Below, one piece after another: positions 12,262 to 62,912 of a stretch of 64,000 nt of DNA. The translations under genes and the position numbers were made by a program. The stretch's first letter is position 1. Every line of letters begins with the position of its first letter. Source of the DNA: Marsupella aquatica (Eukaryota > Plantae > Marchantiophyta); contig OZ316899.1 in the NCBI GenBank assembly GCA_973895155.1, forward strand, positions 10,290,287 to 10,354,286, given 5' to 3'. Below the pieces are notes generated by a model, which saw nothing but the letters and a program-made list of their open reading frames with translations, had not been told where the DNA came from and did no database searches.

Positions 12262-12318
12262 ATCGGATTTGGTTGCTACCTTGGGTAATCTCGGCTTGCC
12301 GAGAATCGCCTTCCTTAA

Positions 12319-13770: not shown

Positions 13771-13986
13771 TTCTCCTTACCGACCCTTCTTCTGGTATGT
13801 CTTCTTCGATGCCACTTTCAAAGCTACTAGCTCTTTCTGCCCCTCTCAGTCGCTGTGTATCATGCCACCCAGCAAGCTGCTACAAACGAGCTCTCTCCCA
13901 TTGATTCGCTCTTTCCTCTCTCGGCGTAGGTTCAGTCATTACCCACGCTTCCTTCCTAACTTCATATCTCACGGCTTAAGAAATGC

Positions 13987-14004
13987 CCCCTCCATCTAGC
14001 GCCA
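13987..14004 (-). promoter_or_regulatory. Primer binding site of element A
   Basis: TGGCGCTAGATGGAGGGG, 4 nt inside the 5' LTR end. Confidence 0.8.
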
Positions 14005-14008
14005 AAAA

Positions 14009-16221
14009 TGTGGTGCGTCCCATGGCTCCCCAAGCCCCCCAAAACCCCCTTGCTCAAGCCGATTCCCGCAAGTTTTGTCCTTGGCGAGGCCGTTTCCGCG
14101 GTTTAGCGGCATGGGACGCTGCTAACTCTCCTTCAACTACTATTAACATTTTACACACATATACTAGACAGATCCTTCATCGGGTCATGAGATACTTAGC
14201 CGACCTATTCTAGGCCCTCCCTTGTATTCCTCTCTTGGTCTTCCATTAGGTATGTTTGGATTCCGCCGCCGGAATGATCCCCAATTGGCTTGGTTAAGCC
14301 GCTAAGACCTCTCTCAGCTCAACACATCCAACTCTCACTCCCTTGCTACTTCCCTTCATTGATGTGGGCACTCTTCACACAAGTTAATGCGACGCACAAA
14401 TAGCAAAATGACGCCTTCTGACTGAGTTATACCATGCACTTGCCATACAAACAGTACATCTCATACACAAGCTCTGCGAACTAAGCCGTGAGGCCAACTC
14501 TATTCAGTTCTTAGGCATGAGGAAACATGAATATACACAAGGGTCATTGTATAACTAACCGAGAGCTTCTCTTACTACTTGATCCCAGCCCTGCTGGTGC
14601 AACTAAAACTTGCTAAAGAAGAGGCCCTGGACTCCCCGCTGCCCAGGTATTTATCCTGGCAGCGGATCTGTCTAGAACTTCATTGCATAAGCTTAATCTA
14701 TCCTACCTGTAATCTACCTAACTGTACAGCGAGGCAGGAGCACAAGTGTTGCTCCTACCAGTGGATCCGCCATCCCACTAATCTAAGTGTCAGGGCTGTC
14801 TCCTGGTCTTGATCCTAATCCTAAACTTGGAGATCTGAGCCCGCCCTGCCCACTCACGCCTCCTACCTCCACGTCCGCCCTTCCTTAAAGGAACGGCGCC
14901 CTTGCACCGTCACGACACCGGTGGCGGATCCTCAATGGACGCCCCCAACGCTTCCCCCGTAGCCACTGCCGTTGGTCCGTCCTCTGACAGATTACCTGCC
15001 CCGGACCGAGTCAACTCTTCATCGGCTTGACTGGGTCCACCCTCGGCTTCAGCCCCAGCATCGGTCACGGCCTTCGATACGGGAGTGAGATAGAAATCCT
15101 TCCCATACACCCTCGTGGAATTGGTCTCGGGTTCCCATGATCCCACGAATTCTAATAAGTCTGAGTCCGGCACCTCCGGCTTCAGCCATGGTAATCTTAC
15201 GAAGGCTTCCAAGCCGGATCCGGCCATGAAGCCCTGGTACTTCTTGGTCTGCATGGCCGTAAAGCATGCATCCTCCTCCCATGCAAAATGTAATTGCACT
15301 TCCTCTGGTAGGGTCGCCGCCCAGCCTTTCAAGGTGTCATCCTTTGTTGGAATGGCATTGATGGGATCGACCTCCTCCTCTTCGGCTTCTCCCTGCCTCC
15401 TGTTCTGCTGCTCTACTGGCTTCCTTGGTGCCGCCGACCTCGTTCTTTTTGCCGGGGTGGCCTCTTCGTTGTTGTTTCCTTTCCTCTTCATCTTGGCTGC
15501 CGTGGATATTTCTCCTAGCACAGTTGCCTTTGTCCACCCCTCCGTGCTACCCTTCAACTCCCAGTGCGCGTCGTTGCAGCGGTTGATGGCTTCCCAAATG
15601 CCAACGATTTTGTCTTCGCAAAACAGAAGGTCATCAAGCTGATTGGCAGTAGGAGTCCACAAGAACTTGGCCTTGATGAGTTCTCCTCCTAAGAAGGCAG
15701 ACTTCTGCAGCTCCCACAGTCGAGCGAGCTCTTGCCGTTCTCGAGCTGCTCTCTCCGATTCTTCGTCCTTGTAAGTCTTAATGTACTCAGTTGCCCGTTC
15801 GAACAGGCATCCCCAAAAATGTGCCGCTTGATTGACGTTGCTCATACCCTTCTTGACTCGATCGTTGGTATCTGCTCCCGCACCGAGTGCTTGCCTAAGC
15901 AGCTGACAGTAGTTGGCCTTCCGTAGTCGTCTGCCCAGTTTGTGCTTGCCAATGAGCCACCATTCCTTGCGAGCGGTCCTTACCCCTCTCCTCCTCTGGT
16001 CTTTCTTCCTGTTGGTTACCCCTAGCCGCCAATGCTTAGCGCGCCCTAACCCTAATCGTGTTCTCTCCCCCGGCGTCCTTACCTCCGGCCACGGCCCGGG
16101 TTCCATAGTCACCCTTAATTGTTTATATTTTCCTTGTTTTTGTTACTATACTAATGTGTTTATAGGGGACACCTCCGTTTCCCCACTTAACTGGCCTAGT
16201 AATTCCTGGCTAGGCATCACA
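14009..16221 (-). repeat. 5' LTR of element A (2213 bp, ~2.5 kb internal deletion)
   Basis: TGTGATGCC…CGCACCACA; carries an in-frame-deleted LTR ORF at 14910-16112. Confidence 0.93.
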
Positions 16222-21062: not shown

Positions 21063-21065
21063 TTG

Positions 21066-22580: not shown

Positions 22581-23876
22581 CTGAATACGGCATGGACCAA
22601 AGAGCAGAAGGCTGTCTTGTTGCGAAAAGCAGCACGTTATCAGGTCATCAAAGGAGTGTTGCATAGGATGGGAGCATATGGTAATCTCTAGAGATGTTTG
22701 GAAAGGGATGATACCCGGAAGGTAATGGAAGCAATGCACGGCGAGGAGGCCGGAGGTCATTTTGCACCAGTAGTTACCACACGGGAGATATTGGATGTCG
22801 GTTACTAGTGGCCAACCTTACACAAGGATGTTCATCAATTCATTAAGGAGTGTGATCCTTGTCAAAGAGCGGGGGGACCAAGGGCTGCTAGTAGACATCC
22901 ATTGCATCCAGTTTTACCCCTTGCTGCATTTGAAAAGTGGGGGATCAATTACATTGGGCCTCTGAAGCCAAAAACTTATCCTCGGAGGAATAAGTACATC
23001 ATCCTGGCCACTGATTATGCCACCAGATGGGTAGAGGCTAGGCCGACGATGAAAAATGATGTTGTTAGAACTGCTCAATTTTTATACGAGCAAATTTTCA
23101 CCAGGTATGGGGCGCCTCTTGAGCTGGTCAGCGATCGGGGGACTCATTTCCTAAATGATATCGTCGGTCGGCTTAATGAGCAATACTTGGTTTGGCATCG
23201 GCCTACAACTCCTTATCATCCTAAGGCCAATGGGCTTACCGAACGTGCAAATGGAATCATTGGTAAAATACTGAACAAGACGGTATCTGATCACAAGGAT
23301 GACTAGGATGACAAGCTGTACGCTGCTGTTTTTGCTTATAACTTGGCCTACAAGACAACTACGGGACATACACCTTATTTCCTAACGTTTGGGCAGGAGG
23401 CTTTGGTACCAATGGAGTTGGAGGTTCCCACTTATCGAGATACTATATGACAACGTCTGTCGGAAGCCGAGAGTAGGAGAGCAAGGTTGTACCAACTGGA
23501 AGCATTGGAGGAAGCCAGATTAATAGCATCGGAAAGACTGAAGTATCGTCAGACACTGATGAAGCAGCGATATGATAAGAAGTTAAGGCCAATCTGTATT
23601 CAGACTGGAGATCTAGTGTTACTGTATGACAGCATGTATGTAAAATTTCCTGGGAAGCTTTACACTCACTGGTTAGGACCATACAAGGTGGAAATGATGT
23701 TCTCCAATGGGTCAGTCCAACTAGCCAATATCACGGGCGAGATTTATCCCGTAAGAGTACACTATGATAGGCTTAAAAAATACTATATGTATGAGTTTGA
23801 AGATGTTTGCGAGGACGCTTCACAATTAAGTGGGGAGCTATGTGATGCCTTGCCAGGATCACGAAGTAATAACTAA
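22581..23876 (+). pseudogene. pol: Integrase of element B
   Basis: HGEEAGGHF…CDPCQR; SDRGTHF; NGLTER; WLGPY. The frame runs through the PPT into the LTR. Confidence 0.92.
23811..23840 (+). promoter_or_regulatory. Polypurine tract region of B
   Basis: GAGGACGCTTCACAATTAAGTGGGGAGCTA|TGTGATG. Confidence 0.75.
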
Positions 23877-26800
23877 GCCTAAAAAAAATGGCTAAATAAG
23901 GATAGATAGAGAGTATAAGGTAACAATAAAGACCGATGCCGATTTCTACGTGTAGATAATAAAGGAAAGGATCCAATGGTTGAGATCCAACGGATTGGAG
24001 TTATGACCTAATCCATGCTTGATCACAAGGACCCCTAAGTGGCGGCTTTGGAGTAAGGTGACCAATACTCTGCCATTTCGCATTCTTGTGTACACGGTTT
24101 CGACATTGAGGAGCGACTGTCAGTCGAGTGCTAAGGTGGATTGGGAGATTGCGCAAGTTCTTGGCATTTGGTGGAATGAACACGGTAAATCAGGCAGGGA
24201 AGTTTGGGGGTTGTTTGCTTGAAGAAGCAAGGCAGCTGATACCTACGTATGAAGACGTTGAGCCGGAGCGCACAGCCAGAGAACGAGCGGAGCTTGCGCG
24301 ATTGTGGGGAATTCACAAAATGGCATTCGTAGATACGGAGGAGGTGTTGGAAAAGTTCTCGTGGACACCCACCAGTGCGGAGCTTGACAAATTGTTGATC
24401 CGGGAGAATAAGGTCGTGGGGATTAGGGAGGGAATCAAGAATGCAGGGCAGCCACTTTGGGAATTGAAGGGTCACACTACGAAGTGGACGAAGGAAGCCA
24501 TTCTTGGGGAGTATTCAGGCGCTGAAGAGATGAAGCGCAAGGGAGGTTCGGCATCCGCCACTCTAGCAAAGCAAACTAGGTCGGAGAGACCAATCAAGAT
24601 GGAATCCGGGCCAGTTAGAGATCGGGCTGTAGAGGATAAAACCATGACAGTGTGGGCGAACAGGTTACCTGCCGATTTACAATTACAGTTCGCAAGAGAT
24701 GAGGATGAGGTCTTCAGTGCCGTTCAGGATAATAAATATGCAAGATATATGAATGACACTGGGTTGGAGGGCTTTGTCAGGTTGTCTTGGAGGATGGTAG
24801 ACATACCAGATGAGGATCTGTTGGACTTCGTGGGATGCTAGGAGGCTTCTTCCAACACGACGCTGCTGTATGGAAAGGTGTTCGAACTAACACCTGCGCT
24901 TATCGAAGCCGTCTTTGCTTTACCAACAGGAAGGAAGACTAAGGTGGAGTAGAGGAAGACGTTGCCAGATGACCAGTTCAGGTCATTTCCAGGGCCTTCC
25001 ACTAAGAATGGGTTTTTCAGGAATCAATGTACCAACCCGCATATAAGGCAGCTGATTGATTTCCTGAGAGTCACGTTGCATTGTACCTTGCCAAGAGCAG
25101 AAATCGGCAAAGCCCAGGTATTTTTGGTGGAGAATATCGATGCAAGCCGAGACTACAACGGCTATCTCTTAATGCAGTTGAAGAAGGCATTAAATGAAGA
25201 GAAGCAGAGCATTGGGGAGGGAGCGGTATCCAAACTAGGGTACCATCTGCAATTACTTTGCCGATATGCAAGAAGCCAGTGAGTCTTTTGCACCGGTGTT
25301 GCCTATACAGGAGCGGATGCCAATCACTGCACCACTTGAGGAGGTGGAGGAGGACGAGGAGCCTCTAAGCAAACAATGCCACGGGAGGAGGTCGGCAACA
25401 CCGGCAACATGAGAATGGGAGCATTCCCCTATCAAGGAGCCAAAGGTAGTAACATATGATGTAGTGAGAAATCCGTTGCGCCGGCCTACTTGTAATAATC
25501 CATATGCAGGCACCCAATTGGTCGAAAGGAAGATGACTGCCGAAGAGAGAAAGAAATATGACGAGCAAATGGATTCGGAGATAGATGAGGAGGTAAGACG
25601 AAGCCAGGAGAGGCCAGTATTAAGAGCTTCTAACAGAGCCCAAGTGGAGGGACCTATGGAGGAAAGTCAACCAACAGCAGCCCAACAATATTCGGAGGAA
25701 GAGATCGGGGGCTTTGGAGGAGAGGCCAGCATGCTAGGTAGTCAGGTTAATGTGGATGATTACGATGATGACTATGTCGATCACGGGGAGAGGCCGGTAC
25801 CAGGAGTTAGAACGATGGGAAGGTTTTGTAGAAGACTTCCCGCAGTCTTCTATGGCAAGCCGGAGGACCAGAAAACACCAGAATCTCCTCCACCAGATGT
25901 GACGCCATTGGAATTTGACAAGATGAAGGAAGCTGAAGCCGGGCTACAAGAGAGGATTAAGGAGTGGGGGCTGGGAATGCAGAACAGGAATGCCAGCTAC
26001 CAGGAGGAGAGTGGTTGGAAGAAATAAGATGGCTTAGTGAGAGGCAGACCGAACCTCTCACTAACTTCGATAAATTACGGGCAGAGGCTTGGGAGAGACG
26101 ACCTCAATGGCAGATGCCAGTATCACCTGGGAGGTCAAACTACGCAAGAAATCGGGCTAAGGAGTATGGAGACATGTGTGGACTCTTAGCCTTAGAAATC
26201 TTGGGTAACGAGTTGGAATCCGGGCCATTTCTTAGAAAAGAAGTGGCTGATCAAACGAGATTGGAGGAGGCAATGACGTTGGAGTGGTTAAAGAAAGAGG
26301 AGGTAATTGCTCGGCTTCGCTCCATGGAAGCCGAAGTTGCTAAGACAAAGTCTGGTCAACCAACTCAGCAGGATCTCTTGGCTAAGCAGCAGGAATTGGA
26401 GGTGGCAAACAACCAATTGGAAAACTACCAATTGGATAACCAGCAGATCAAGGAAAAATTGACAAAGGTAGAGCTGGAGTTAGCCGATTCAAAAGCAGAA
26501 GTACAGGGTCTAAATTGCCAGGTCGAGAGGCTCAGAAAGACGGCTAAGGATCAGGCCACCCAGAGCGAGAAGGCCTTGGCAGAAGCCCAAAGGAAGTATG
26601 ACAAGTTACTCGACCGGTTGGAGGCCATGCGTGAGAAGCATGATGACGCCATGTGCACAGCGGCCAATGATCACCTAAACCGAGTTCAACAGATACGCAA
26701 GGAGCTCAGGAGGAGCTAGCGAGGACAAAGCAGGCATGGACGGACGAGGTCACAAAACTGGAAGGCATCAACGACTCCTTGAAAGCAGCCATAGATAAGC

Positions 26801-28452
26801 AAGAGTTGGAGATCGTGCAGATCTTAAATGAGGAGCTGAAGATGGCCAGGTCCGAGATACAACGGCTTAACAATGAAGTTGAAGACGTATCTCAGGAATT
26901 GGAGGAGGCTAGGGATAAGATGCTCGGGTTGCAGAAGCGTGTCGACAATCAAACAAAGAAATTGAAGAAGTATGGCAAAGCGGGATATGGGTCACCAACT
27001 GAAAGGCTTCCCGTCAGTAGTATGGTAGGTGGAAATACAGTGAAGCCAAAGCCAAAGCCGAGCTCATTGTTGTCATGCGTGACTGGGGACAAAGCCATGC
27101 AGTTGGTAGCAGATTTGGCAAAGACGTTCATGGGGCCAGGCGATAATAAAGTTAAGCCCCTTAAAGCCACTCCGGAGGAAGTCGAGAGCATGGCCGCTCA
27201 CATTTGTGGTACTGTGGCCCTGAAGGCAGCTGTGGTAGAGGTAAGTACTGCGGATCCACTTGGAGCTGCGGTAACAGGTTCAGACGATGGTACTGCTTCT
27301 ATGGACGCCCAGAACGTGAGGCCGTGGGTTATCGAGACCGAACGCATCGGGGACCAGGCTTGGATTGAGGAAGTTAAGGCAAAAGCTCTCCAAGCCGTTT
27401 CCCAGGAGGATGCCGATGTAGCAGCCGATGCCGGGGCCGACAAACCAGAACCCGAAGTTGAGGAAGCCAAAGGGGTCAAGCCGGAGCCGATGGCAGGAGA
27501 AGGTGCAGAGTTGGAAAATTCGGACTTACCCCCGGTCATCTGACAATTAAGGAGGGCCAGTCATCGGTTGGAAGGAGGACGTGGCGGCAAGAGAAGGGCT
27601 TGGGCCAGAAGGGCACGGCCGTTGTAGGATGGGACAGGGCAAGTAGCACCCTGTCGGCTTAGGTAGTATTAGATGCTCGGTTCACACAGGGTTCCGGGCT
27701 AGTCAAGTTTTTTAGGTGATAGTTTTTTAGTAGGATTATCGCGGTGGAAGGCCGTGAGTTGTGGTTAGGATTTCCGCCTTTTCCCCTGAACGCGCTGCAA
27801 GCATAAAAACCTGGGCAGCGTGGCCCGTGGGGCTTTTTCTTAGTCAAGGCTTTAGTGTAAATCTGTATTGTTGTGAGCACAAGAAGCTCTCGGCTAAATC
27901 TAGACCGCAGGGTATCAGTAAACCACCAGTTCCCTTGGATTTCTGAGCAATTGTTTGAATTGAGTTGGCCTCGTTGCATAGTTCACAGATTCTTGCCATC
28001 CAAGAAGTTGAGTGTTATGATATCTGTTGCTTGATCGATTTAAGTCAGATAGGGTGAACTATTGAGCAAAATACAATCGCATTGTCTTGATTGGAGACTG
28101 CCCAATCAAACTTTGAGAGAAAAGTGAGGATTGAGAGTGTTTAGTCGGTGAAGTGTGGGTTGAGTCAGTCTGCAAAAGACCTTCAGCCGGCTTAAGAAAT
28201 TAAGCCGTAGGGGTACATTCCGGGGGCGGAATACAAATATACCTGAAGAAGTTAAAGAGGAATTAGGTGTCTCAGTTGTGCACAATTCACAAGCCCAATG
28301 AAAGAATCGGTCCGGTAAGTGTAAATCGAAGGAGAGGATTGCATTTCCAAACCGAATAGCTGCCAAAGGGCAAGAGGACGGACATAAACGAGTGGTTTAT
28401 GATCAACTGAGGGTAGTTCTTTGGGTTAGAGGTCTTTGGAAAACGCACCACA
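23841..28452 (+). repeat. 3' LTR of element B (4612 bp)
   Basis: TGTGATGCC…CGCACCACA; its 3' 1.95 kb matches the 5' LTR remnant. Confidence 0.92.
24176..27543 (+). pseudogene. LTR-encoded accessory protein (family B, ~1120 codons, degraded)
   Basis: Six ORF pieces align in order with the family-A LTR protein (e.g. GPSTKNGFF, HCxLPRAEIGKAQV, PESPPPDV, LPGGEW, GPF). Confidence 0.85.
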
Positions 28453-30269
28453 ACTAACTAAAGTCATATTATAGTCATGTATCAACAAGACTAGACTCCA
28501 TGATGGAGTCACCAGTAGTAGAAACCGGGGCAATTTAGACCATACCTTATAGGACTAAGCCCACTAAGTCTTTCTTCCATACTTTAAACGACTCGCATCC
28601 ATTGCCAAGGTTTTGTTAAAGACTATAAAAGACTTCGAATGTTTCCCGGTTTAGTTAAAGACTATGAAAAGTATACTTGCTATTTTGTGAAGGGTGAACA
28701 CTCTACACATCATGGATTTTATTCTTGGAATCCACAATAAAGGTCCACACAAAGACTAGGACACTCGATAGTCTTACAAGGGTTCATCATAAGAGTGTAC
28801 TTCAAAAGGACCAGTCGACGTGCTACATTTTGGTGGCAGTGCTTAAGGAACATGCCTTGTATATATCACCAACGTTAACTAACATTGCACCGTAAAGATC
28901 CATGTAACGGGTACTTTTCATAACTTAGGGTACTTTTGATAGAGGTAATTCCATGAGGGGGGCCCGGAGGGGGGGTTAGGGTGGGGCACAACTGATTTAG
29001 TGGCCTCATACTTGAACAGAGAGGGATTTATTTAAAATTATCCTTTACCCTCACCCAAATGTACTCATTTGTTGCCTAATTAAGTCCACATTGTGCCCCT
29101 ACATCAAGACTCTGGCCAGGACTTATCAAGCCTAACGGCTCAACTCAACAGCAGACAAAGCGGAAGGCAAAGGTGAGTGTTTGTGCACCGTTAGAGTAAC
29201 CGCAAGTACTCTATTACATGCCTTGTTGTTCTCTATTACATGCCTTGTTCTCCCGCCCACTGTTTCCTGCAATTTTCTTTCTTCCAGAAGAGAATGGTGA
29301 TTTCTTCTTCTATCAAACAAAACCCCACCCAACCACCACCCAAGAACGTGGGGTGCACGCGCTTCTTAATCCTCCTCAAACTGGCCCATTGTTCATTGAA
29401 ACCCCACATATTACCCACCGGCACCAAGGGTCCAGTCCCAACCCGTCTTCCGCTTCCCACCATCTTCACTCTCTCGCGCATCTATCTCCTAAACGGCGTC
29501 GCTGGCCCTTAGACACAGAATGCTCCGCTGTGATATCGCCTCCAACTTTTCTAGTGCAGTCTAGGCAATTAGACTGCTTTTGAGAAAACTGCCCTTCTTA
29601 AAAGTGAGCAATACTAATAAACCCCGGTAGGGGCGGAGCTGGGCGGAGCTGTGGGTACTGAGGGAGCTAGGTGTGAGGGTTTGTTACGATGGCCGTGGAC
29701 CTACCGTGGGCTATGGTGGAACACTCTATTGTCTATGATGATTCTAAATCTGCTTGAACTGCAAGTGGATGTGCTTTAAGGCAAACTCGTCGGAGAAATT
29801 AGAATGGGGGGACGGAGTTATCAGTGCTTAGGTTGTGGCATTTTTGAGATTGTCAAGAGTAATCTGTGATCTCATTTCTAAACGGTTTGAGCTCCTCTGA
29901 TGTGCATAGGAATCGGGCTGAGGAAAGCTTTTGGGAGCTATCATTGGAACTAGCTTTCGATCTAATTCTGCTACTTTTGAATTGGTACTTGGGAAGGCTT
30001 TGTATCGTTAAGCACTACAAGATTCACAGGCCAGACCTGCTTGCTAGTATGAGGGGCTTTGAAGGAATGTGCGGCCAGGGCTGATTGAGTATGGATTAAT
30101 TTTGCATTGCCTGAGATACTGAAACTGCCACCCGCTTTGTTTCAGTGTGTTTGGCTGCTTGCTCTTGCAACTTTGGAGCTGGGTGGGTGAGACGGAGGGT
30201 GAGGCGGAGGGTGAGTTGTCTGTATCGCTTACCTTTGCTCAAATTTCCCCTTTGTTGCCTCTCTGGCTT

Positions 30270-36704: not shown

Positions 36705-39684
36705 TAAGATGAGGACATCACACCGGTCTCGCACCTAGCACCTGTTTCTATGACTATACATGATTGGACTCTGATATGGTCATGGATGTACGTGCAGAGG
36801 CAGTACATGTGAGGACAGCGGAGGAGTTGACACCCTCAAACATTTAGGAATTTTGTCTCATTCACTTGAGAATAGGTACATGACTCAGGCACCTATATTT
36901 TTTGTTTTTTTGGAGCGTTATGCTACGTCTTTTGGCAAGTACAGTCGGGGGTGAAATCCTTAACAGGGAGTGTATTTTTCACTTGCATAATAAAATGATA
37001 GGGCGTTGAGTGTGTGTGTATAGTGATGGCTCCAAGGTTGCCTCTTCACAACCCATTTAGGATTAGGCATCATGATTCTAAATTGTGGATGCGTGAACAA
37101 GCTCAGGCCGCCCAAGGTAGGAGTAGGAGGATGAGATGCCCATGCACACAGTGCCAAGGATTCAAGTCGTTGAGTTTGAACACTGTGCACCTTCACCTGC
37201 TGCGGCATGAAAGGCACCCTCGGTGGAGGGTTTGGAATGTCCCAGCAGAAGAAGACTCCTCTGATGAAGAGTGGAGAGCTGACTTTGTGGATTCTAATAC
37301 AGCTAGGCATAGAGACTATGTAAAGCAGGACATAGACGGTGTAGAGGATGGTCCTGGGGTACAACATGAGAACGTGGATGACCATGATGGAGATGCAAAG
37401 GCAGTCACTGAGGACGGTGGGATGGATGTCCCAAGAAATGTTCCCAATATATTTGTGACAGAGTTGTTGACCTTCCTGCGCCAAAATGTGTTACCAGATG
37501 GTAATTCAATTCCAAAAAATATGTACAAGGCTAGGAAATTGATGTCTAACCTTGGGCTGAACTATGTGTCTATTGACGCATGCCCTGATGGGTGTGTTCT
37601 CTTTCGCAAAGAGCATGCAGATAAATTGACATGCCCTCATTGTGGTAAGCACAGGTACAAGAATGTAGGGAAATGTACACACCCTGCCAAGGTTCTTTGT
37701 CTTTTTTCTCTCATTCCTATACTACAACGTCTGTTTAGATGCCCTGCCATTTCCAAGCTGATGACATGGACTTCTGATAACAACAGCAGTGATGGCCTTC
37801 AGTGTCACATTGGAGATTCCAACCATTGGAAATTTGTTGATGAGAGGTGGCCACAATTTGCTGTAGAGAAGCGGAACTTTCGATTTGGTCTATCACTGGA
37901 TGGAATAAACCCATTTGGAGACAAAAACAACCGTTATTCATGTTGGCCAGTTACGCTGCTAAATTACAACCTTCCCCCATGGATGACTACAAAGAGGTTT
38001 TTTGTGATGATGGTGCTGCTAATCCCTGGACCAGCTTCTGTGACCGAGCAATTCATAGATATCATGTTGGCTCCAGCAGTGGAAGAGTGGAAGACTTTGT
38101 GGATAGAAGGGGTGTTAACCCATGATGTTCTGAAGGGACTTCTTTGACCCAGCCCCTTTAGACTGCATGCAATTTGTTTGCTGGATATAGCAGATTACCC
38201 AGGCCATGGCATCATATCTAGACGAGTGACAAAGGGCTATGTGGGGTGCACACCATGTGGGAAAAATGTGACAAGTGAGTGGTCGCATGCCCTGCACAGT
38301 ATGAAATTTCAGGGGCACAGAAAGTATCTGCCTGCTGATCATCCTTACAGGCACACACGGTCTCCAATTGCACACTTCAACAACAAAACAGAGCTTTGTG
38401 GCCCACCACAGAGGGTCACCAAAGAGAAAGTCCTGAGGTGAGCAGCCAGGAAGGCTGATTGGGACAAGAGAAGTGCCACTGATCAAGAACCTGAGGATCC
38501 AGTGGTGAAACACGGTGTGAAAAGACAGACCTTGATGGACTTGGAGTTGGAGTACCGGAGGGTAATGTACTTAGCCTTCAGCCCCTGTATGATCTACATT
38601 TAAGATTGGAGCAATGGTGGATTGATGTTGGTTACAATCCTCCTATTTGGTTAATTAGTGTTTCTGTTGTTGAATTCTTTGCTTTGTGGAGTGCAGGAAT
38701 TCAAGCCTAGCAAACACAATGTGGACGTCATGCACATTGAGAAAAATATTTGTGAGAGCTTGCTGAAGTTCTTGTCGGGTGAGAAAGATACAGGAGCAGT
38801 TCGAGCTGATATGCAACAGAAGGGGATTCGCCCTCACCTTTGGTTGAAGCCCCATGCAAGCAATCCCAATGTACTTCTCAAGTTCCAAGCTCCCTATGTG
38901 TGCACACAAGAAGAATGGAAGACATTCTTGTATAGATTGAGCTGTCTGAAAGTGCCCTTTGGCTATGTTGGTGCCTTCAAGAAGCATATTACAAAGAATA
39001 AACTTGGCAGTATGAAAACACATGACTACCATGTGTTGATGCAGCACATTTTGCCCCTATGCCTTAGAGGTCTCATGCAAAAACAGTCCGTAATGTCATT
39101 CTTCGACTGTGCACTGTATTTCGCCGTATATGTGTGAAAGTGTGGGATCCCCAAGGATTGGAGCAGTTGAAGCAGGATGCTGCTTATGTCCTCTGTGACT
39201 TGGAGATATACTTCCCCCCTACTTTCTTTGATGTTTTGACTCATCTCCTAATCCATGTGGTAGAAGAGCTAGGGCAGTATGGGCCAGTCAGTACGAGATG
39301 GATGTACCCTATGGAGCGATACATGAAGTTGTTGAAAGGTCATGTGAGAACATACTATAGGCCAGAGGCTTCCATGGCATTGGGGTACATTAAGGATGAG
39401 ACGTTGGGGTTCCTAACAGAGTACATGGCTGGGTCTGGTGAAGCTATGACAAGAGTTTGGAAATCTGGTGAAGATGATGGAGTGAGTGGCAACATTGTTG
39501 AAGGTGTGGGACGTGCTATGCAGTTGTCTGTTGCGATTCGAGACAAGGCTCATTCATATGTGCTGGCGAACACAGAGCCTATGCAACCATGGTGGAGGTG
39601 AGTGATTGAATTGACTTGCCTTTGTTGTGATGCTTCTTGTCTATTCCAAGGGTGATCTTAGGTTGTCATGTGTTGTTTAGACCT

Positions 39685-42600
39685 TGTGGTGCGTCCCATG
39701 GCTCCCTAAACCCAAGAAACCCCTCTGCACAAGCCGATTCCCGTAGGTTTCGCTCTTGGCAAGGCTGATTTTGCGGCTTAGCGGCATGGGACGCTGCAAA
39801 CTTCCTTCTACTACTATTACTATTAACATTTTACTCACATATACTGGACAGATCCTTCATCGGGTCATGAGATACATAGCCGGCCTATTCTAGGCCTTCC
39901 CTTGTCCTCCTCTCTTGGTTTTCCTTTAGGTATGTTTGGATTCCGCCGCCGGAATGATCCCCAACTGGCTTGGGTAAGCCGCTAAGACCTCTCTTAGCTT
40001 GACATATCCAACTCTTACTACCTTGCTTACTCCCTTCTTGGTTGATGTGGGCAATCTTCAAACAGGTTAATGTGACACGCAAATAGCAAAATGACTCATT
40101 CTGACTGAGTTATACCATGCACTTGCCATACAAACAGTACTTCTCATATACAAGATCTGCGAACTAAGCCGTGAGGCCAACTCTATTCATCTCTTTGGTA
40201 TGAGGAAACATGAATATACACAAGGGTCACAGTATAACTAACCAAGAGCTTCTTTAACTACTTGATCCCAGCCCTGCTGGTGCACTAAAAACTTGCTAAG
40301 GAAGAAGGCCCTGAACTCCCCGCTGCCCAGGTACTTATCCTGGTAGTGGATCCACCTAATTCCTTGCAGCGTAAGCCTAATCTACCTAACTATAATCTAC
40401 CTATGTACAGCGAGGCAGAAGCACAAGTGTTGCTCTTACCAGTGGATCCGCAATCCCACTAAGCTAAGTGTTAGGGCCGCCCCTTGGTCCTGATCCTAAT
40501 TCTAAACTTGGAGATCTGAGCCCGCCCTGCCCACTCACGCCTCCTCCCTCCACGTTCGCCTCCTTAAAAGGAGCGGCCCTCCACCACCATCATGGCAGCG
40601 GTGTCTGGTCCTCAATGGATGCCCCCAACACTTCCTCTGCAGCCACTACCATAGGTCCGTCCTCTGACAGATTACCTACTCCGGACCGAGTCAACTCTCC
40701 ATCGGCCTGACTGGGTCCACCCTCGGCTTCAGCCTCAGCATTGGCCACGGCTTCCCCGGCATGCTCTAGTGGTGGATCCGGTACCCCGGCTTCATCACCG
40801 AGTATCCTGGCCTCGACTTTGCCATCCCCGCCTTCTAGGGCAGTTGGATCCTCTACCGTGACCCTGCCTGAGGTTGGTGTTGGGTTTACCTCCTTGGTCA
40901 CGACGGCTTGAGGAGCCGTATTACTCCTTGACCCAGAAGGTTTCCGCTTCTTCTTCTTCTTCTTTGGTTCGGTAGCTGGCCCCTTCCCCTTGCCACTTAC
41001 CTCCGGCACTGGTGCGAGTGTCTCCGCTTGTCCTTTGCCCAGTACTACTCCTGGCAACTTGGTTGCCGCAATTGGAGTTGGACCTAAGGAAGCCAAGCAT
41101 TTAAATATTGCGGCCTGTTTCTTCAGTCGCTCCGTTTGGTTGTCGGCTTGCCGCTGTAAGTTCTCCATCTTCTTGGTGGTTTCCTCCAACTCCTCCTGCA
41201 ATTCATCCAGGTCCTTGCGCGCCTCTCCCGCTCCTTCTGGGCTCCCTCCAATTCCTTCTTTAAGGTAGCCCTCTCCTCTTGGGTTGCTCTCAGCTCCTTG
41301 TCGAGCTCCGTAACGACTTCAGACTCCATTTTATTCATCTTGGCATAAGTCTGATCAAGCTGGTCGTCTTTCTCATGGAGGTTGGCCTTGAAGCTGGCCG
41401 TCATGATTGCAAGCTCCTGCCGCAGCACAATAATCGCCTGATAGGATTTCCCTAACTTGGCCTCCTTCTCCTCAAGGGCTCCGCGGATATCCTTGAGTTC
41501 CCCCTTCAGCGCCCTTTCCCTTCTCTGAGTTTCCGCCATGGCCCAATTGTTGGCTGCTATGTGGGCCTCCTCTGCGTCTCTCAGCTCTCGCTTCCACTTC
41601 TCCTTCTCCTTGATTGAATCGGCCAACTCACCTTGGGTCCGAGTCAGTTTGTCCTTGATAATCTGATTATCAGACTACACGGTATCCAATTGCCCCTACA
41701 TGATGTTGAGCTCATGCCGCTTAATCCGCAGCTCATCTTGGGCTTTCTTGGCCGCCTTCAGGTCTTCTACCTCGGCTTCCCTTGCCCTAAGCCGATGGAT
41801 GACCTTGTCCTTCTTGCTTCTCTCCAAAGCCACCGCTTCTTCTAATCGGCGCTTCTCCAACATTTCCCTCTGGAAAAAGGGTCCCTGCTCCAAATCCTCC
41901 CCAAAGATGCCGAGCGCAAGTTCCCCACACATCTCCCTGTACTCCATGGCTCGTTCTTTAGCATAGGCGGAGTGAGTAGAAGTCATCGGCATCATCCACC
42001 GCGGCCTTTGTTTCCAAGCCGCCTTGCAAATTTCTTCTATCGTGACTGGCGGGCTGCTTTGTTTTTCTGCAAGCCGCCTGATGTCCTCTGGCCATTCTCC
42101 TCCTGGTAAATCCTTCTCCCTAGCCAGAACTGCCTCTTCTTCCTCCCTGAGTTGTTCCTGAAACTCCTGTGCCGTCTGTTTTATGCCGTCAAAGCTTGGG
42201 GGAGCGACATCTGGTGGGGGAGACTCGGGGCTGCTCTGCTGGGTCGGGTCCCCTCGAACTACTCTTGGAAGTGTGGGGATGAACCTACCACATGTCCTTA
42301 TTCCTAGAACATGATGGTCCGACCCGTAGCCGGAGTCATCATTGTCGTAGCCTTCTACCGCCTCCTCCTTGGCTTGGACTACCGGCTCCCCCCGCTGCTG
42401 TCCTGGTCTTGCCGTGAACACGGCCTCACAGATCACGGGTCTTGGTTCCTCTGGCTTCCACGTTGATCTCAACTTCTCCTTGTCGCGACCAGGAGCTTCG
42501 GGCTGCTTTTCCTTGGCTTCAAGACTTGAAGCTCCTACGTACATTCGGACTCCTGGCTCGTGTTTCGGTCTTCTTCTCTCCTTGACCCCGGTAAAGGGGT

Positions 42601-44389
42601 TTTCCCTGGTAAGTTGGCTAAGGCTGACTTTGGGAGCAGTATTCTGTACCGGTCCCGTTGCCGTTACCGTTCTCCTTTCCTTCTCCAGCAATTTCAGCAG
42701 ATTCTGCATGCCTGGTTGCTGCATTGGCAAGTCCTCCTTCCTCAGCCTAAACACCTGCTCGATTGTAGGACTGTCGGGCTGGGTTGGTTTCTCTGTTGCC
42801 GGCCTCGGTTTTGGAACCTCCTCTGGTGCTCTTGCCTGCAGGGGCAGTACCGGGGCAAATATCTGACTTCGGGCATATTGGCACAACAACGGCATATGAT
42901 AACCAAGCCGGGACACGCTTCCCATGCCGATCACCAACTGTTCCTCCTTCAAGATCTTCTTTAGTTGGGTGAGGAGGTACCCGTTGTAGTCTTGGCTTGG
43001 GTCTGGCCTCTCCGTCAGATACACCTGTGCCTTGCCGATCTCTGCCCTCGGCAAGTTACAATGCATGGTCACCCGCAAGAAATCGATCATTTCTCCTATG
43101 TGCGGGTTGGTGCAGGTGTTTTGGAAGAAGCCATTCTTTGTTGATGGCCCTAGAAACGACTGGAACTCCTTGTCTGGCAAGGTCTTCCTGGTATCTACTT
43201 TGGTCTTATTGCCCATCGGCAAGCCAAACACTTTGGCAATCACCCGGGGAGTGAGATAGAAATCCTTCCCATACACCCTTGTGGAATTGGTCTCGGGCTC
43301 CCATGATCCCATGAATTCTAGTAAGTCTGAATCCGGCACCTCCGGCTTCAGCCATGGCAACTTTACGAAGGCTTCCAAGCCGGATCCAGCCATGAAGCCC
43401 TGGTATTTCCGAGTCTGCATAGCCGTAAAGCATGCATCCTCTTCCCGTACAAAGTGTAATTGTACCTCCTTGGGAAGGGTCGCCGCCCAGCCTTTCCAGG
43501 TGTCATCTCTTGTTGGAACAACATTGACGGGGTTGACCTCCTCCTCTTTGGCTTCCGCCTGCCTCCTGCTTCCCTGCTCTGCTGGTTTCCTGGGTGCCGC
43601 CGACCTCGTTCTTTTTGCAGGGGTGGCTTCTTCGTTGTTGCTCCCTTTCCTCTTCATAGCGGCTGCCGTGGATGTTTCTCCTAGCACGGTTGCCTTTGTC
43701 CACCCCTCCGTGCTACCCTTCAACTCCCAATGTATGTCGTTGCAGCGGTTGATGGCCTCTCGGATGCCGACTATTCTGTCCTCACAAAACAGAAGATCGT
43801 CGAGTTCGTTGGCAGTAGGCGTCCACAAGAATTCAGCTGTAATGAGTTCTCCTCCTAAGAAGGCAGACTTCTGCAGCTCCCATAGTCGAGCAAGCTCCTG
43901 CCGTTCTTGAGCCGCTCTCTCTGATTCTTTGTCCTTGTAGGTCCCAATGTACTCAGTTGCCCGTTCTAACAGGCATCCCCAAAAATGACCAGCTCGATTG
44001 ACGTTGCTCATACCCTTCTTGAGTTGATTGTCGGTATCTGCTTCCACCCCGAATGCTTGCCTGAGCAGCGGACAGTAGTTGGCCTCCCATAGTCGTCCGC
44101 TTGGCTCGTGCTTGCAAATGAGCCGCCATTCCTTGCGCTCGGTTCTTACCCCCCCCCTTGGCTGGTCTTCCTTCCCGTTGGTTACCCATAGCCGCCAGTA
44201 CTTAGCGCGCCCTAACCCTAATCGTGTTCCCTCCCCCGATGTCCTTACTTTCAGCCTCGGCTCGGGTTCCATAGTCACCCTTAATTGTTTATATTTCCCT
44301 GTTTTTGTTACTATACTAAGGTGTTTCCTAGGGTACACTCCTGATTTTACTATTTAAACTGGCCTAATGATTCCTGGCTAGGCATCACA
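39685..44389 (-). mobile_element. Solo LTR of family A (4705 bp) in TnpD intron 2
   Basis: TGTGATGCC…CGCACCACA with TSD GACCT at 39680-39684 and 44390-44394; no gag, pol, PBS or PPT. Confidence 0.96.
40590..44011 (-). CDS. LTR-encoded accessory protein (family A, most intact copy, ~1140 aa; open reading for 880 codons, then two frameshifts)
   Basis: ORFs 41696-44338, 41123-41626 and 40590-41201. Likely start is MSNVN at 44011, by alignment with families B, C and D. Contains a PMD-like motif (LEFMGSWEPETNSTRVYGKDFYLTPRVIAKVFGLPMG), a coiled coil and an NLS-like PKKKKKKRKP. Confidence 0.85.
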
Positions 44390-46103
44390 GACCTAACTAT
44401 GCCTGTACCTCATATTGCAGGGAATATGATATGCAAAAAGCTGCACACTCTAGGCAGCAGGATCCCTTCCCACAGTTTGAGCAGTGGATTCGGGTGGCAA
44501 TTTGAGAGCATAGTAGACATCACCCAAATATGGAGAAGGAGTTGTATCTTCTATCTGTGCCACCACGATTGTCTATTCTGACCTACAAACGGATGACAGC
44601 TTATGGAAATCATTATCGAGTGAGGGATGAGCAAGGTGACCATTGTGTATCATATGATTGTGGTTTGATATCTGTGTTTGAGCAGAGAACCTCTGAAGAA
44701 CAGAGGGGGTGGATGAAGATGGGTTACGTGGGGGAGTTGACAGACATTTGGGTCTTGAATTATGGTAACACAAGTGTCCCTATAATATTGATGAAGGGAG
44801 CATGGGTGAAATCAGAATGGCAGAGGCCAAGGGCCACCATGAAGCGTGATCCTGATGGGTTCTTGTTGGCCAATTTTAGGTCCAGAGTACCAGAATGGTC
44901 TGAGCCTTTTGTTTTCCCTAGCCAAGTTGAACAGGCTTCTTTCTAGATGTGGAGGGGTCACATGACTGGAGGGTGGTATGCCATAGCCAAGCACGGAACA
45001 GGTGGATGGATGGAAGTAAAGTAGAGTTCAGTTTGGACGACCATGCTGCATTCGAGCATCCTAGTCAGGAGACTGTAGTTCCAACTCGGGCAGGGACCGA
45101 CTTCATCCCGTTAACATTGAGAGACATATGATGAACCTGGGGAGATGGAATATGATGAGGTTGATGATGTGCAATAGGCAACAGCTGGCGATTGGCAAGT
45201 ATGAGGTTGAGGATGACTACCTGCACAGAGTCACATAACGGGAATTGCTGCCTGGGATGATGTTTAGGATAGTTGGATATGCATGAAATTGATTGATACT
45301 TTGAATCTAGTGTGCTGATTCTCCCTATTTGGTTGTGGGTGTTGTGCAGAAGCTACGGGGGAAGAGGGTGATGACATGGAGACAGGCATGGGGCTTGGAG
45401 AGTGGGGTGAAGAGGAAAGATTGGATATGGATGGAGATCCAGATGCAGGGGGCTCACAGAAAAATGCACTTGTGCAAGATGCACAGGGCCCTCATCAAGT
45501 GCCAGGTAGGTGGGCAGCTAGAGAGAAATCACATAATCCATACCCTAGAAGGAGCCAAAGTTATTGGCAAGAGACGCCTGATGATTATGATGATGACTAT
45601 GATGGAGCAAAAGATGGATGGGATGAATATGAACACCTAGAGCGTGGTAGAGACGGGTACAGAGGGCAATGGAAAGGTGAGGAGGATGATTGGACAAGTA
45701 AGTGCCTTGTGCTAGTGATTTTGTGATGGTAGTAGAGATTTAGCTCAATATGGACTTATCTGATGTCTAGCTATGGCAAAGAGTTTATCTTACAGGTCCA
45801 TCAGTGTGGCATGTACCTGTTGTTATGCAGACTCTAATTGGGACAATCACAAAAACAACAAAGGCCATCCACGTTCAGATAGGAGGCAATCATTCACAGG
45901 CGGGAGAAACGACACTAATTCATCAAGACAAAGCAATTGGACAGGTGGTCCAGAACCATCTATGCGCCAAGGGAGAGGTAACTTGGTCATTGCAGAATTG
46001 CTTTGAAGTCCAGTGTATATTTGGCAGCAAAATTTACCCTTCATACTTACCTAATGGATCCCGTAAATGTGCAAGGACTCCAGGGAGGTTTGGACAATGC
46101 AAT

Positions 46104-58953: not shown

Positions 58954-61900
58954 GGTGGTGTTCAAAAGGCAGTAAGATTGTTTTGTCACGCCGAAAGCTT
59001 CATCCGTACACAAATTTTGGCTTGGACGGGCATAATCTTCATTAGTTTTGAGGGTTCGGGCAAGGAGGGATGTGTGAACTGAACCTTACTCCCGTAATCT
59101 AGCGCTAATCCTACTTACATAAATATCATGGGTATAGCTTGTGTTCCGCCGCCGAAACATACCTTAAGCCAATAACTGGATTGACCCAGGCTTAAGCCTT
59201 CGCGCTATCCACCTCTGATCCGGATCCAATGATACAGGTGTCCAACCTAGGCTCGCAACCACTATCCGCAGTCGACAACCCGTGCCCAGCTCGGATAGTG
59301 CGTTCTGCCAAGCATTCTTCTACCCGTATACAAGATTCATACATGCAACTGTATTCACAATCATTCAATCTCGGTTTACACGAAGGAAATAGTGGGAAAA
59401 CACTTTAATTCATAATCCGTCATACACATATACACGGTTGACTTGACATCTCTTGAATGAACACGACCAACGGCAGAAAGGCGTACACTACAACGGAGCC
59501 CGGCTCCACACTCACCCAGCGAGCTTAGTCGTACCCTCCCTCCTTGACGCTCTTTTACTCACAAAGGCTGGGACTACTTGCACATCCTACGAATACCCAG
59601 TTCTAAAACTAAAATCCCCCTGCCTCTACCGGGGGGTGGACTAAATACTAAGGGACGGGATCCAGAGCGGCCACGTGCCCGAATCTATGGTATCCGAGAT
59701 TCTAAACTCTGCTAACTGCCAGGCCGTAAAACTGCGTGTCTTATTCTAAGATTCTAAACTACGAAGGTTAGTCGGATAGGACAGCGTTGCCAACTAGTTT
59801 TGGCGCTTGTGCTTATCTTCTGACTTCCCTAATTCTAACTCTATCCTAAACCTACCCCGCCGCTAATGTCTGGCGCGCTTGCCAGACCTGCCCAACTTGG
59901 ATTTGAGCGGCCATCCCACTGCCTCCTAAGCCGGTTGGCGTCCTGCTTGAGCAGCTGGACTTGGTCTAGCAGAGATTTGTTCTCTTGCTTCGTCGTGTCT
60001 GTCTCCTCCACGGCTTCCTGGCATGCCTCTTCCAATTGTTGGGCGTTGCTCGTCAGCTTGTCCACCAATTGGGCCTATTTTGTGGCATCTTCTTGAAGTC
60101 GTGCTACCTCTGCCTTCAGGGCGTCCAGCTTGGCTGCGTCTTGCTGGGCCCGGGCGTTTGCTTCCTCCGCATCTTTTTGCCAGATGACGGCTTGTCCCTT
60201 CAAACCATCAATCTGGGTCCAGAGCCGTGCAATCTCGACATCCCTCCCAATTCCGGCCTATTCTGCCAAGGCTTCTCGGGCCCCAGCTTTGGCCGCTTGC
60301 TCCAATGCGGCCGCTAACTGAGGTCGTAGCAGTTGAAGCTCGGTTTCTCGGGCTGAGGCTTTGTTTTTCAGGTGGGTAGCCTCAACCCAATACCGCTCTA
60401 TCTTCCGCGTAAGCTCAGTCTATGCATGCCCTACTCGTACTACTGCAACCAATTCTTGGTTGACAAAGTAGGCCACCTTTCGTGCCATCAACTCCCCTGT
60501 ATCCCGCGCAATTTGTTGGGAGAAGTCACCCAACAACCCATTCAAAAATGTGCCCGGTGCAAAGAGTTCCAAGTACTCCAGGCTATGCCCACTCGGGTTC
60601 GGGCAAGGACAGACCCCAACTTGCGCGGGGGTTGGAGTGGTGACGTCCAGTCCCTAGACTATGAAGACAGAGGGGGTTGGGTTCTTCGCAAGGGATGGGG
60701 AGTTCTTGTGGACAACCGTGGAGGGTATCGGGGTGTCCTTCGTAATCATAGTCTCAGGCCCGGGGCCGGCTTCCTCCAGCCCGACTTCGATGGTTGCGCT
60801 GGCTTGGTTGATCGAATCCAGGGAATATAACCACATTGTCCGATATAGAAGGAGGGGCCCCATGGCCGCCGGACTTTTGGCCTTGGGTTGGGGTCGCCTT
60901 TCTTGGGCCGGGAATACCCACCGTGATGGGGTTAGCTTGGGCTTGTTGAGCCATGGGAGGTTTTGGTGGTCAAAACAGGCGTACCACTCGATGATTATTT
61001 TGATGTGGTTTGCAAGGTACACCTTTCCACCAAGGTATAAGGTCTTTCTTCGTCGTTCCATCTCCTCGTGGAACTTCTTGACGAAGAAAGAAGCCCACTT
61101 CCTAGGCCGGTAGTTCTCGACCTAGATTACTTGGGCGGAGGATATTTTGCCCCTTGGCTCCATCATGTGAAGGGCGTACCTCTGGAACTCCAACCGCTCC
61201 GCTATCTCCGGGATGAGGCATGTCCTCATCAAGAATCCGTTGTCCAATGCTCCTTCGGCCGGGAAGCTAGAGGACTGATACTTGGCTCCCTTGCCCCCAG
61301 GAGCCCGTGATTCTACCCGGTTTACTCCCTTGGGTAGGCCAAAGATCATCTTGAGCCGTGCCTCACTTAGGGACATCACTCTCCCATGTGCACGGGTTTG
61401 TTGGCGGGCCTCGTCAAAGTTCTGGACAAACTCCGTCATATCCTGCCCATAATACCTGCAAGTATTCCAAGGGAGAGCGGCGAAATGCTCAAACCCTTGG
61501 GTCTTCAGATAGCATGCCTGGTTGGGGTGGAGAATGTTCTTGTGGACATTCTCCCCCATGTGATGCATGTTCAGCTTGGCCACCGCAACTGTGGCCAAGG
61601 GCAGCCCATATATAGCCGCGGGTTCCTTCCTCTTCCTACCCCAAGACTGGTTTTTGGGGTGACTTGTAGAGGGGGACATCTCCCAGTCCTCTCTATCAGG
61701 TGGCAGTGCTACCGCCGTAAGTACTGGCGTTGGGGCCGCCACTGTCATCGCATTGTCCATCGAGGCTGCCGCCTGGGTTTGTTGATGTGTCGAAGCGGTA
61801 CCCAGCCCGGCCCCATAAGAACCTGGTGAATTGTGGATAAGGGGAGGGGCCTCCTTGTCCTCTGAGCTGAGGTTGACCGCATTTACCATGGACTGCACTC

Positions 61901-62912
61901 GAGCAGATGGTGCAATGGGCGGTGGGGAACGGCGAGATGGATGGCGAGGCGGAGTTTGTGCCGGTGCTGGCGAGCTGGTTGGAGCTGGAGGGGGTGCCAT
62001 AGGACTCCAAAATTTAGAAGGGAAGCCAAGGGATGTCAGTATTGAGGGCTCGCCGGACTCGGACTTTGATTAAACCAAAAGTTGGGGTAGGATTGAACTC
62101 GGGCAGTTATATCGTCAAAGTGATGACGTTGGAGATCCACCGTGCCCGGGATCCTGAAGACTTTGTCCGGGAGTCAGACGAGCGCTTCTCCAAAGCCAAG
62201 GTAATTTGGGCCGTCAAAGAAGAATTTGGTGATCTCCTCATTCTGTAAGTACTTGCTCTCAAACGGGAGGCTGAAGTTGTTGTTGTAGTGTGAGTGCGCA
62301 TTGCTATAGATAAGTTGTTCGTACTCTCTCTCGGCTTTGTATCTGCGTGGATTGTGTCCGGCGAGTGATTTCGCAAGATGGCTCCCAATGTGTAGAAATT
62401 GAAACCAAAAACAAATGGCGGAAGTGGACATAATCAAGACCGACATAAGGCGTGGTGTGTATGATCGCTCCAAGGAAAACTAGAGAGTTTGGGATCAAAG
62501 CTGGCACGCGGAGTGAACTAGTGGCCCAAGACGGGGAAGAGCTTGCCTTTTATACTCTTGTAGTGCATCAACCGATTGGTTCCTCCTGCCTGTGATAGAC
62601 CAAGCCCTTTGCGCCCGGGGGGTACTAACCACTCCGCAGGTCCAGGTCAGAGCGTGCCAATGGGCCGTCTCTAGATCTGTTATACAAATCCGAGGCGGAC
62701 CGCCATAACGCGCCCTTAATCCAGCGGTACGTCAGGTGAAGCACCGCCAGCTCAAACACGAATCCCCATTATTACTAAATCCTGTCTTAAACATCATGAC
62801 TAGCTAATTTGTGTCTTTATACTAATAACGACAGGCTACAAAGTCTACTTCCAATGTACGTAACACGGGTTGAGCCATATTACTCATTACCAGCCGTGCG
62901 GGCGGCATCACA
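58954..62912 (-). repeat. 3' LTR of element C (~3.96 kb)
   Basis: Starts TGTGATGCC after the PPT and integrase. The left end is approximate (GGTGGTG instead of TGTGGTG). Confidence 0.75.
59841..62473 (-). pseudogene. LTR-encoded accessory protein (family C, degraded)
   Basis: N-domain at 62174-62473; GFEHFAALPW…EFVQNFD…IFGLPKG…NGFLMRTC…PRGKISSAQV matches families A and B; coiled coil at 59841-60400. Confidence 0.8.

Follow-up and report, generated by a model that had tools for sequence, protein, structure and literature searches.

A long gene under purifying selection inside the long terminal repeats of liverwort Ty3/Gypsy retrotransposons, with a predicted VANC-like core

A gene inside a solo LTR and in the LTRs of neighboring elements

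The 64,000-nucleotide stretch analyzed here (the window) comes from the liverwort Marsupella aquatica (GenBank assembly GCA_973895155.1, contig OZ316899.1, positions 10,290,287 to 10,354,286 of the forward strand) and contains a solo long terminal repeat (LTR) of a Ty3/Gypsy retrotransposon that carries a long protein-coding gene. Parts of the same gene lie in retrotransposons of four families, A to D, in the window; coordinates are collected in Table 1. The solo LTR is a single LTR with no internal region and with matching target-site duplications (TSDs) on both sides, and sits within a CACTA transposase region (Pfam Transposase_21 at 37002–38144 and DUF4218 at 39068–39598). The joined empty site was found in three of four DNA runs (from two studies; the best run may be the source sample). 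The family is abundant, with 7,798–24,141 matching contigs per run and all 30 bins of the unit covered in each of the four runs. The first-pass annotation of the window, made from its sequence without database searches, had read this 4.7-kb TG..CA unit with a 5-bp TSD as a solo LTR that retained its gene, and both the flanks and the empty site bear this out. The sequence ATATAAAC lies about 97 nt from the LTR start, in the 5′ non-coding part.

Sequence 3′ of the polypurine tract (PPT) is copied into both LTRs by plus-strand priming, and recombination between the two LTRs leaves one whole LTR between the TSDs. A gene located 3′ of the PPT is therefore present twice in every insertion and once after recombination. 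Self-comparison of the window places the gene wholly inside the duplicated LTR in A, in B and in the solo LTR. Element A (4840–16221, TSD AGCCA) has two LTRs that are 96–97% alike and are internal-deletion forms of the solo unit, to which they are 85–87% identical; both encode the first ~255–260 residues of the protein. The 3′ LTR of element B directly adjoins the PPT, and its 5′ LTR remnant, which bears the coiled-coil and tail part, ends at the primer-binding site (PBS); we assign this remnant (1762–3712) to B because A is nested in the gag of B. The C unit begins after the PPT motif also seen in B (its 3′ LTR end was sought in the window and not located), and the N-terminal domain of D resembles that of C (44% over 90 amino acids). 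Distances between LTR pairs are 0.035 for A and 0.040 for B, and the solo LTR differs from A by 0.15. The open reading frame (ORF) had been placed inside the LTR rather than in a spacer between pol and the LTR, with homologous ORFs in B and C and the N-terminal domain in D; this layout holds, the copies being decayed or cut off, and those of B and C are broken like that of the solo LTR.

The longest frame in the solo LTR runs to 885 codons from stop to stop, a length reached in none of 500 Markov simulations (longest simulated frame, 363 codons). The 880-codon ORF reported in the first-pass annotation is thus real as a long frame, but the gene itself begins at the ATG at 44011, and its first unbroken piece, counted from there, is 771 amino acids. 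An ATG stands at the matching place in all four families. We compared nonsynonymous with synonymous substitution (dN/dS) by a Nei–Gojobori-type count with kappa 2. From this ATG onward, dN/dS between the solo LTR and A is 0.19–0.22 (95% intervals within 0.12–0.34), and in the 87 codons further upstream it is 0.89–1.01, which is why we set the gene start here; a start at the ATG at 44272 is ruled out by the same near-neutral ratio. The comparison among families that had been proposed, carried out on the A–D blocks, likewise gave ratios below 1: 0.17 for the core between the solo LTR and B, 0.25 and 0.33 for the coiled-coil blocks and 0.59 for the tail block between families, and 0.37 for the N-terminal block between C and D (with a wide interval). 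The two LTRs of A, compared with each other and so reporting on change after insertion, gave 0.99, the reverse transcriptase (RT) control gave 0.01, and the other frames of the between-family domain blocks gave 0.9–2.5, save the antisense frame that shares third positions. The LTR gene evolved under purifying selection, as the earlier claim of protein conservation had it: four domain blocks stand at 0.17–0.33 against 0.99 after insertion.

These data also bear on whether this is an LTR gene at all. Every copy in the window is broken, as would be expected if an internal ORF had been merged with a short LTR, if the unit were an assembly artifact, or if a captured gene were decaying neutrally. 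The TSD flanks the whole unit and an empty site exists, the gene is present in both LTRs of A and adjoins the PBS in B, dN/dS is about 0.2, and unbroken homologs occur elsewhere (see below). Explanations of this kind are largely refuted and we regard them as very improbable.

Table 1. Features of the LTR gene, the solo LTR and the related elements in the window
Feature	Position	Strand	Remarks
LTR gene	40590..44011	-	~1,140 codons from ATG 44011; stops 41698, 41677; frame change near 41230
N-terminal domain, ~100 aa	43715..44011	-	common to families A–D; predicted helical, outside known families
Basic patch KRKG...KRTR	43599..43654	-	possible nuclear localization signal, judged by eye
Core domain, ~210 aa	42866..43489	-	VANC21-type (DUF1985) fold predicted; weakly linked in sequence to PF20167 Transposase_32
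Likely coiled-coil region	41100..41926	-	weak coiled-coil Pfam matches; dN/dS 0.25–0.33
Solo LTR	39685..44389	-	4,705 bp, TG..CA
5′ non-coding part of solo LTR	44012..44389	-	open frame, dN/dS ~1
3′ non-coding part of solo LTR	39685..40589	-	blocks conserved between families A and B
TSD, left of solo LTR	39680..39684		GACCT
TSD, right of solo LTR	44390..44394		GACCT
Element A 3′ LTR	4840..8325	-	gene remnant, internal deletion (solo ~42006–43214)
Element A internal region	8326..14008	-	PBS, gag (zf-CCHC), RT-RNase H, integrase, PPT
Element A 5′ LTR	14009..16221	-	gene remnant, internal deletion (solo ~40751–43247)
Element B 5′ LTR remnant	1762..3712	+	3′ third of gene; PBS at 3717
Element B 3′ LTR	23841..28461	+	decayed gene 24176–27543
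Element C unit, PPT to end of decayed gene	59841..62912	-	starts 62912
Family D LTR start	1..1034	-	TATA box, N-terminal domain, ATG 565; cut by window edge

Several further features were recorded around these elements. The deletions in the A LTRs (7155–7177 and 15071–15081) have near-equal left breakpoints (solo 43214 and 43247) and differing right ones (42006 and 40751), and in both LTRs they remove the second half of the core domain. A C-family LTR start with a TATA box (51814) lies at 51472–52946 and is followed by other sequence instead of the gene; that sequence recurs inverted at 57852–58881 and 56781–57161, so that this is either a gene-less variant or a nested insertion. An ORF with a BRCT domain (E 9e-9) lies at 35488–35994, upstream of the CACTA transposase, and an inverted CACTA transposase fragment occupies 1035–1761, between the D LTR start and the truncated B 5′ LTR. 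A 1.93-kb repeat with internal inverted arms is present twice, at 19136–21062 (nested in element B) and 47638–49565 (in the CACTA region), the two copies being 98% identical.

Homologs, lineage and position of the gene

A profile of the core domain matched 70 representative proteins at E≤0.001 among 1.84 billion, one of which (P0154) looks like a repeat artifact. Twenty representatives were looked up, and these included eight from Calypogeia fissa and two from Riccia sorocarpa. The N-terminal domain is also present in four of the core matches (three significant), among the homologs being an unbroken protein of 906 amino acids (P0201) with both domains and a coiled-coil-like C-terminal region. 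Two Riccia sorocarpa proteins (P0177 and P0179) have the core fused to a DDE_Tnp_4 fragment, and may indicate that the core domain also occurs on Harbinger-type DNA transposons or may be gene-model fusions. Word-indexed protein searches found no homolog of the whole ORF, nor did one with an alignment, which a poorly set range confined to proteins of 1,368–3,905 amino acids; scans of metagenome and viral contigs with core patterns, and of viral contigs for integrase (INT), gave no match.

Scanning metagenome contigs for INT yielded 42 loci (handles beginning with L), in seven of which pol is followed by a long sense ORF that encodes the core domain (E<1e-28 for a deep profile that includes the seven loci themselves; the best E with a profile from the window only is 0.01, for L027). 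Three carry further unbroken homologs, measured from stop to stop: L004 (853 amino acids), L005 (632) and L009 (641). L007 and L008 have a cut-off start of the gene. None of the contigs of L004–L009 includes both LTRs in full; in all of these loci pol is followed by the LTR-proximal PPT motif and then by TG. The 5′ LTR end before the PBS in L006 and L008 is the inverse of the LTR start seen after the PPT, and because of this match we place the gene inside the LTR in these two as well.

The first-pass annotation had ascribed an LTR location of the gene to the lineage as a whole, but some of its members have the gene elsewhere. The sister element L003 has a homologous gene in a 745-codon frame between two PPT-like tracts, with an LTR of ~1 kb; the second PPT shows that the gene is internal, in an Athila-like layout, and rules out L003 as a carrier of an LTR gene. 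L002, L010, L027 and L030, whose layouts are only partly visible, share the post-pol tract of L003. The gene may have been internal at first, as it is in L003, and have entered the LTR later, a direction we infer because the Athila layout is described as internal (PMC1142308, PMC7264820). We reject an origin by a mere change to a PPT further upstream, since in the LTR-gene clade pol is immediately followed by the LTR-proximal PPT motif. A separate motif, TT[C/T]GCG.GGAC..T.CAC, is conserved throughout the clade just upstream of the LTR-proximal PPT (8340–8358, 23808–23825 and 62928–62945 in the window, and in L001 and L003–L009); it may act in cis in plus-strand priming or in packaging.

C, D, L007 and L008 have TATA-like boxes ~100–200 nt before the ATG, those in A and B being weaker, and a promoter of the gene's own near the LTR start is likely from these sequences. 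The gene could lie in U3 under such a promoter, or else within a very long R; the conserved block downstream of the stop, if it were a second promoter, would place it in U3.

The elements have the features of Ty3/Gypsy retrotransposons, namely gag, the order RT, RNase H (RH) and INT, a PBS, a PPT, TG..CA LTRs and a TSD. Their RT-RH is 70–72% identical to metagenome polyproteins and 50–53% identical to Riccia sorocarpa proteins, the highest named full-coverage relatives among the matches listed. In an INT tree of 76 rows, built with a midpoint root and without curated references (L023, L027 and L030 fell below the length cut), they group with Riccia rows in a clade of their own (100/98), away from the angiosperm rows, and within one 100/98 clade nine LTR-gene rows split from three internal-type rows (98/92). 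No additional RNase H (aRH) was matched in the A and B elements, nor is there room for one; the catalytic residues of the native RH are intact in B, and in A a short stretch next to the first aspartate is deleted. The PBS reads TGGCGCTAGA in A and B and TGGCGCCGCTGCCG in L003, L006 and L008, which we provisionally label Arg-like and Asp-like, respectively. Another non-chromovirus element in the window, at 54098–56810, consists of an LTR end, a PBS TGGCGCCGCTGCCG at 54107, the type of L003, L006 and L008, and a gag at 55305–56807.

Set against described lineages, the 5-bp TSDs (GACCT, AGCCA) and the lack of aRH agree with Athila in REXdb, in which 72% of members have a tRNA-Asp-type PBS. REXdb also describes Athila with an extra ORF situated after pol and ahead of the 3′ LTR, an arrangement found here only in the sister element L003. 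The aRH of TatI–III, Ogre and Retand is absent here. Tat Z1/Z2 elements, known from liverworts and other non-flowering plants, resemble ours in lacking aRH and having an intact native RH (PMC10508981, PMC13468544); compared by description, the accessible text of these sources mentions neither an accessory nor an LTR gene. Phygy and Selgy, which have 4-bp TSDs and no extra ORF, are excluded because the TSDs here are 5 bp, and by the extra ORF.

A predicted VANC-like fold and a candidate DNA motif

The protein is ordered as an N-terminal helical domain, a basic patch, the core, a long linker, a likely coiled coil and an acidic tail. Basic columns at model positions 107, 124, 145 and 154 of the core are conserved. 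Pfam has no family for the window core or N-terminal domain. For the core we found no DUF1985 (Pfam) or PDB-sequence match, the PDB sequence search returning only coiled-coil noise, and the plant mobile domain (PMD; PF10536) was absent from the Pfam scans and from the matches listed (25 of 68 families). The N-terminal domain, whose model is weak (predicted local distance difference test, pLDDT, of 75 in one of five models), gave no Foldseek or Atlas match. Structure prediction, which had been suggested as a check, was run on the core and gave a VANC21-like fold: the AlphaFold2 (AF2) model, built from 57 sequences, has a pLDDT of 94 and a predicted template modeling score (pTM) of 0.90, and in Foldseek its match to VANC21-DNA (9lnj) has a TM score of 0.46 and E 3.1, every other listed row scoring ≤0.17. 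VIA-align superposed the core on VANC21 with Z 8.3, 195 aligned residues and a root-mean-square deviation (rmsd) of 4.1, as one of 73 chains with Z≥2; an independent wide search aligned 208 of 221 residues to 9lnk_A with Z 8.2 and rmsd 4.4. VANC21 was the sole chain with Z≥5 among 48,161 PDB chains, the next reaching Z 2.1, and the model matches its residues ~289–534. A fold search of BFVD gave no match at E≤0.001 (best E 0.083, TM 0.33). The core is thus predicted to share the fold of VANC21, a DNA-binding anti-silencing protein.

VANC21, encoded by the Mutator-like transposon VANDAL21, binds a 9-base motif that has accumulated in its own transposon (PMC5735166), and its DUF1985 is described as resembling the PMD of MAIN/MAIL proteins (PMC13547354, bioRxiv 2024.09.27.615353). 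Both protein types are reported to act at short motifs against silencing (PMC5735166, PMC13547354, bioRxiv 2024.09.27.615353), PMD-C proteins against Polycomb (bioRxiv 2024.09.27.615353), and elements A and B have a candidate short motif as well. We ran an unbiased hexamer scan with Markov order 2 and order 3 expectations and corrected p-values. AAGCCG is the top hexamer in both A (29 vs. 6.4 expected) and B (27 vs. 5.5 expected). The pooled count is 56 in 21.8 kb, compared with 11.9 at order 2 (p 4e-17) or 24.5 at order 3 (p 8e-5), and elsewhere in the window the hexamer is absent from 6.0 kb of CACTA sequence, present once in 28462–36900 and present five times in 49566–58899. The sites lie on both strands and in several frames, and for each of the four coding sets from A and B their number is higher than in any of 500 synonymous shuffles. 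Ten of 13 sites are kept between the solo LTR and A (5.3 expected); between LTRs after insertion 6 of 8 are kept (6.5 expected), the background level.

Related elements have other motifs: TCCGGA-type in L004–L009 (3.3–9.7 per kb vs. ≤1.0 in 20 other loci counted), AAACCG in L002 and AGCGCT in L003. Under a uniform test on ~3.3 kb, a CG-containing hexamer reached corrected p<0.01 in five of eight gene-bearing loci and in none of nine without a core match, counts that are not independent because the gene-bearing loci are interrelated and the hosts differ; none of six loci too short to classify reached this level. The observed-to-expected CG ratio (CG o/e) is 0.56–0.73 in A–C vs. 0.28 in CACTA, where the higher values may reflect younger age. 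Over the whole loci L006–L009, TCCGGA occurs at 6–10 per kb through LTR and gag-pol, and CG o/e is ~0.9–1.1.

The core also has weak sequence links to the env-like ORF of Athila (PF20167, PF03078), which like the gene here is a sense accessory ORF downstream of pol in a non-chromovirus that lacks aRH. PF20167 is matched by 3 of the 57 core family members (best E 0.006); hhalign gave E 0.0026 and a probability of 12%, with a score of 26 compared with ≤15 in 40 shuffles; and the ESM Atlas gave a lead only, toward PF20167/PF03078 (0.87–0.88). The deep core profile matched none of the PF20167-bearing polyproteins among 120 scanned. With these weak links, the env-like position of the L003 gene, and the lack of a motif in C and D, the gene could be functional with the motif unrelated to it (a host-factor site or context-dependent CG decay), its product being an Athila env-like factor for particle movement or a chaperone. 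However, no transmembrane stretch was detected (maximum 19-residue hydropathy 1.0–1.15 across three protein pieces), the predicted fold matches a DNA-binding domain, and the motif differs by clade and is absent from other repeats in the window, so that we consider this distinctly unlikely. The gene here further differs from the Athila ORF in lying 3′ of the PPT that abuts the LTR, and elements A and B differ from Athila in their PBS.

Proposed role and implications

We favor, with a probability of about 0.55, a reading in which the selected product of the LTR-borne gene, through a VANC/PMD-type core, binds a motif of its family and shields its own element from silencing. The protein would enter the nucleus and oligomerize through the coiled coil; its core would bind the family motif (AAGCCG in A and B), and the bound protein would keep chromatin open, as the fold and the biology of VANC and PMD proteins suggest. 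If so, the factor might still be provided in trans by a young solo LTR. The solo copy described here is broken, so the full protein cannot be made from it.

The likeness to VANC21 (PDB 9lnj/9lnk) extends from the predicted fold to transposon origin and motif enrichment in the element's own DNA, and a coiled coil is reported for VANC21 too (PMC13547354). Unlike VANC21, the protein is encoded by a Gypsy LTR rather than by a VANDAL/Mutator DNA transposon, in a liverwort rather than in dicots, to which VANC is described as specific, and its candidate motif is dispersed in coding and non-coding DNA.

Beyond the non-independence of the loci and the possible age effect on CG content, several observations weigh against a shielding role. 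None of the gene copies in the window is intact, and both A LTRs lack half of the core domain. Foldseek gave no significant match for the core, its identity to VANC21 is 7–9%, and a Z of 8 is a middling score; a common fold by itself shows no function. Proteins of the MAIN/MAIL PMD type also act in silencing of transposable elements (PMC5418596). Taken alone, L003, L004, L008 and the slices of A, B and C (solo p 0.010) fell short of significance when ~3.3 kb was tested, and C and D carry the gene but show no significant motif (82 of 500 shuffles). Whereas the targets of VANC are located in tandem repeats outside coding sequence (PMC5735166), AAGCCG is scattered over coding DNA.

The fold, selection and motif data would also fit a protein that binds element DNA or RNA in some other role, such as transactivating the LTR promoter, guiding integration (into other members of the family, for instance), packaging or nuclear import, with the motif as its site and silencing marks not its target. 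Element A is nested in B, which shares AAGCCG, as integration targeting would have it, and a regulatory role has been proposed for the Retand TRP28 ORFs (PMC11963269). A single nested pair is weak support for targeting, though, and the solo LTR inserted into motif-free CACTA sequence; moreover, where the function of a protein with this fold has been tested, it concerns silencing marks. We judge such other roles rather unlikely, and prefer the shielding role.

A broader proposal, which we put forward tentatively and with less than even confidence, is that bryophyte Gypsy elements have a VANC-type, sequence-specific anti-silencing system with clade-specific pairs of protein and CG-containing motif, in which the move of the gene into the LTR in one clade would double it at every insertion and turn solo LTRs into trans-shielding cassettes, and that VANC, PMD and Athila env-like domains would all derive from one ancient transposon DNA-binding fold, far older than eudicot VANC.

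Genes encoded in U3 are familiar from retroviruses, in sag of mouse mammary tumor virus and nef of HIV, which, like the gene here, encode proteins, are copied along with the LTR and persist in solo LTRs; those proteins are unrelated to this one and several times shorter. Non-chromovirus Gypsy elements with accessory ORFs, Ogre elements with PMD, and LTRs of up to ~5 kb are already known (PMC6317226); PMD-A is an accessory ORF of Ogre/Gypsy elements (PMC5418596), and the extra ORFs of Ogre are described as internal, unlike the gene here. In the literature covered, with subscription papers largely outside it, neither a conserved gene within the LTRs of plant Gypsy elements nor a retrotransposon that pairs a VANC-like fold with a matching motif was found to be described, bryophytes included.

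What the accessory ORFs of plant retrotransposons do is a long-standing question (PMC7264820, PMC11963269), and in the literature examined, as far as its accessible text goes, the anti-silencing factors whose sequence-specific action has been tested are encoded by DNA transposons. Here, the predicted fold, the 6-bp candidate target and the naturally occurring pairs of protein and motif (AAGCCG, TCCGGA-type and AAACCG) make the idea directly testable by DNA-binding assays and in a laboratory liverwort. If env-like domains do share the VANC/PMD fold, the envelope reading of those ORFs needs revision. A gene within the LTR also speaks against regarding solo LTRs as inert, and genes of this kind may be overlooked by pipelines for LTR annotation.

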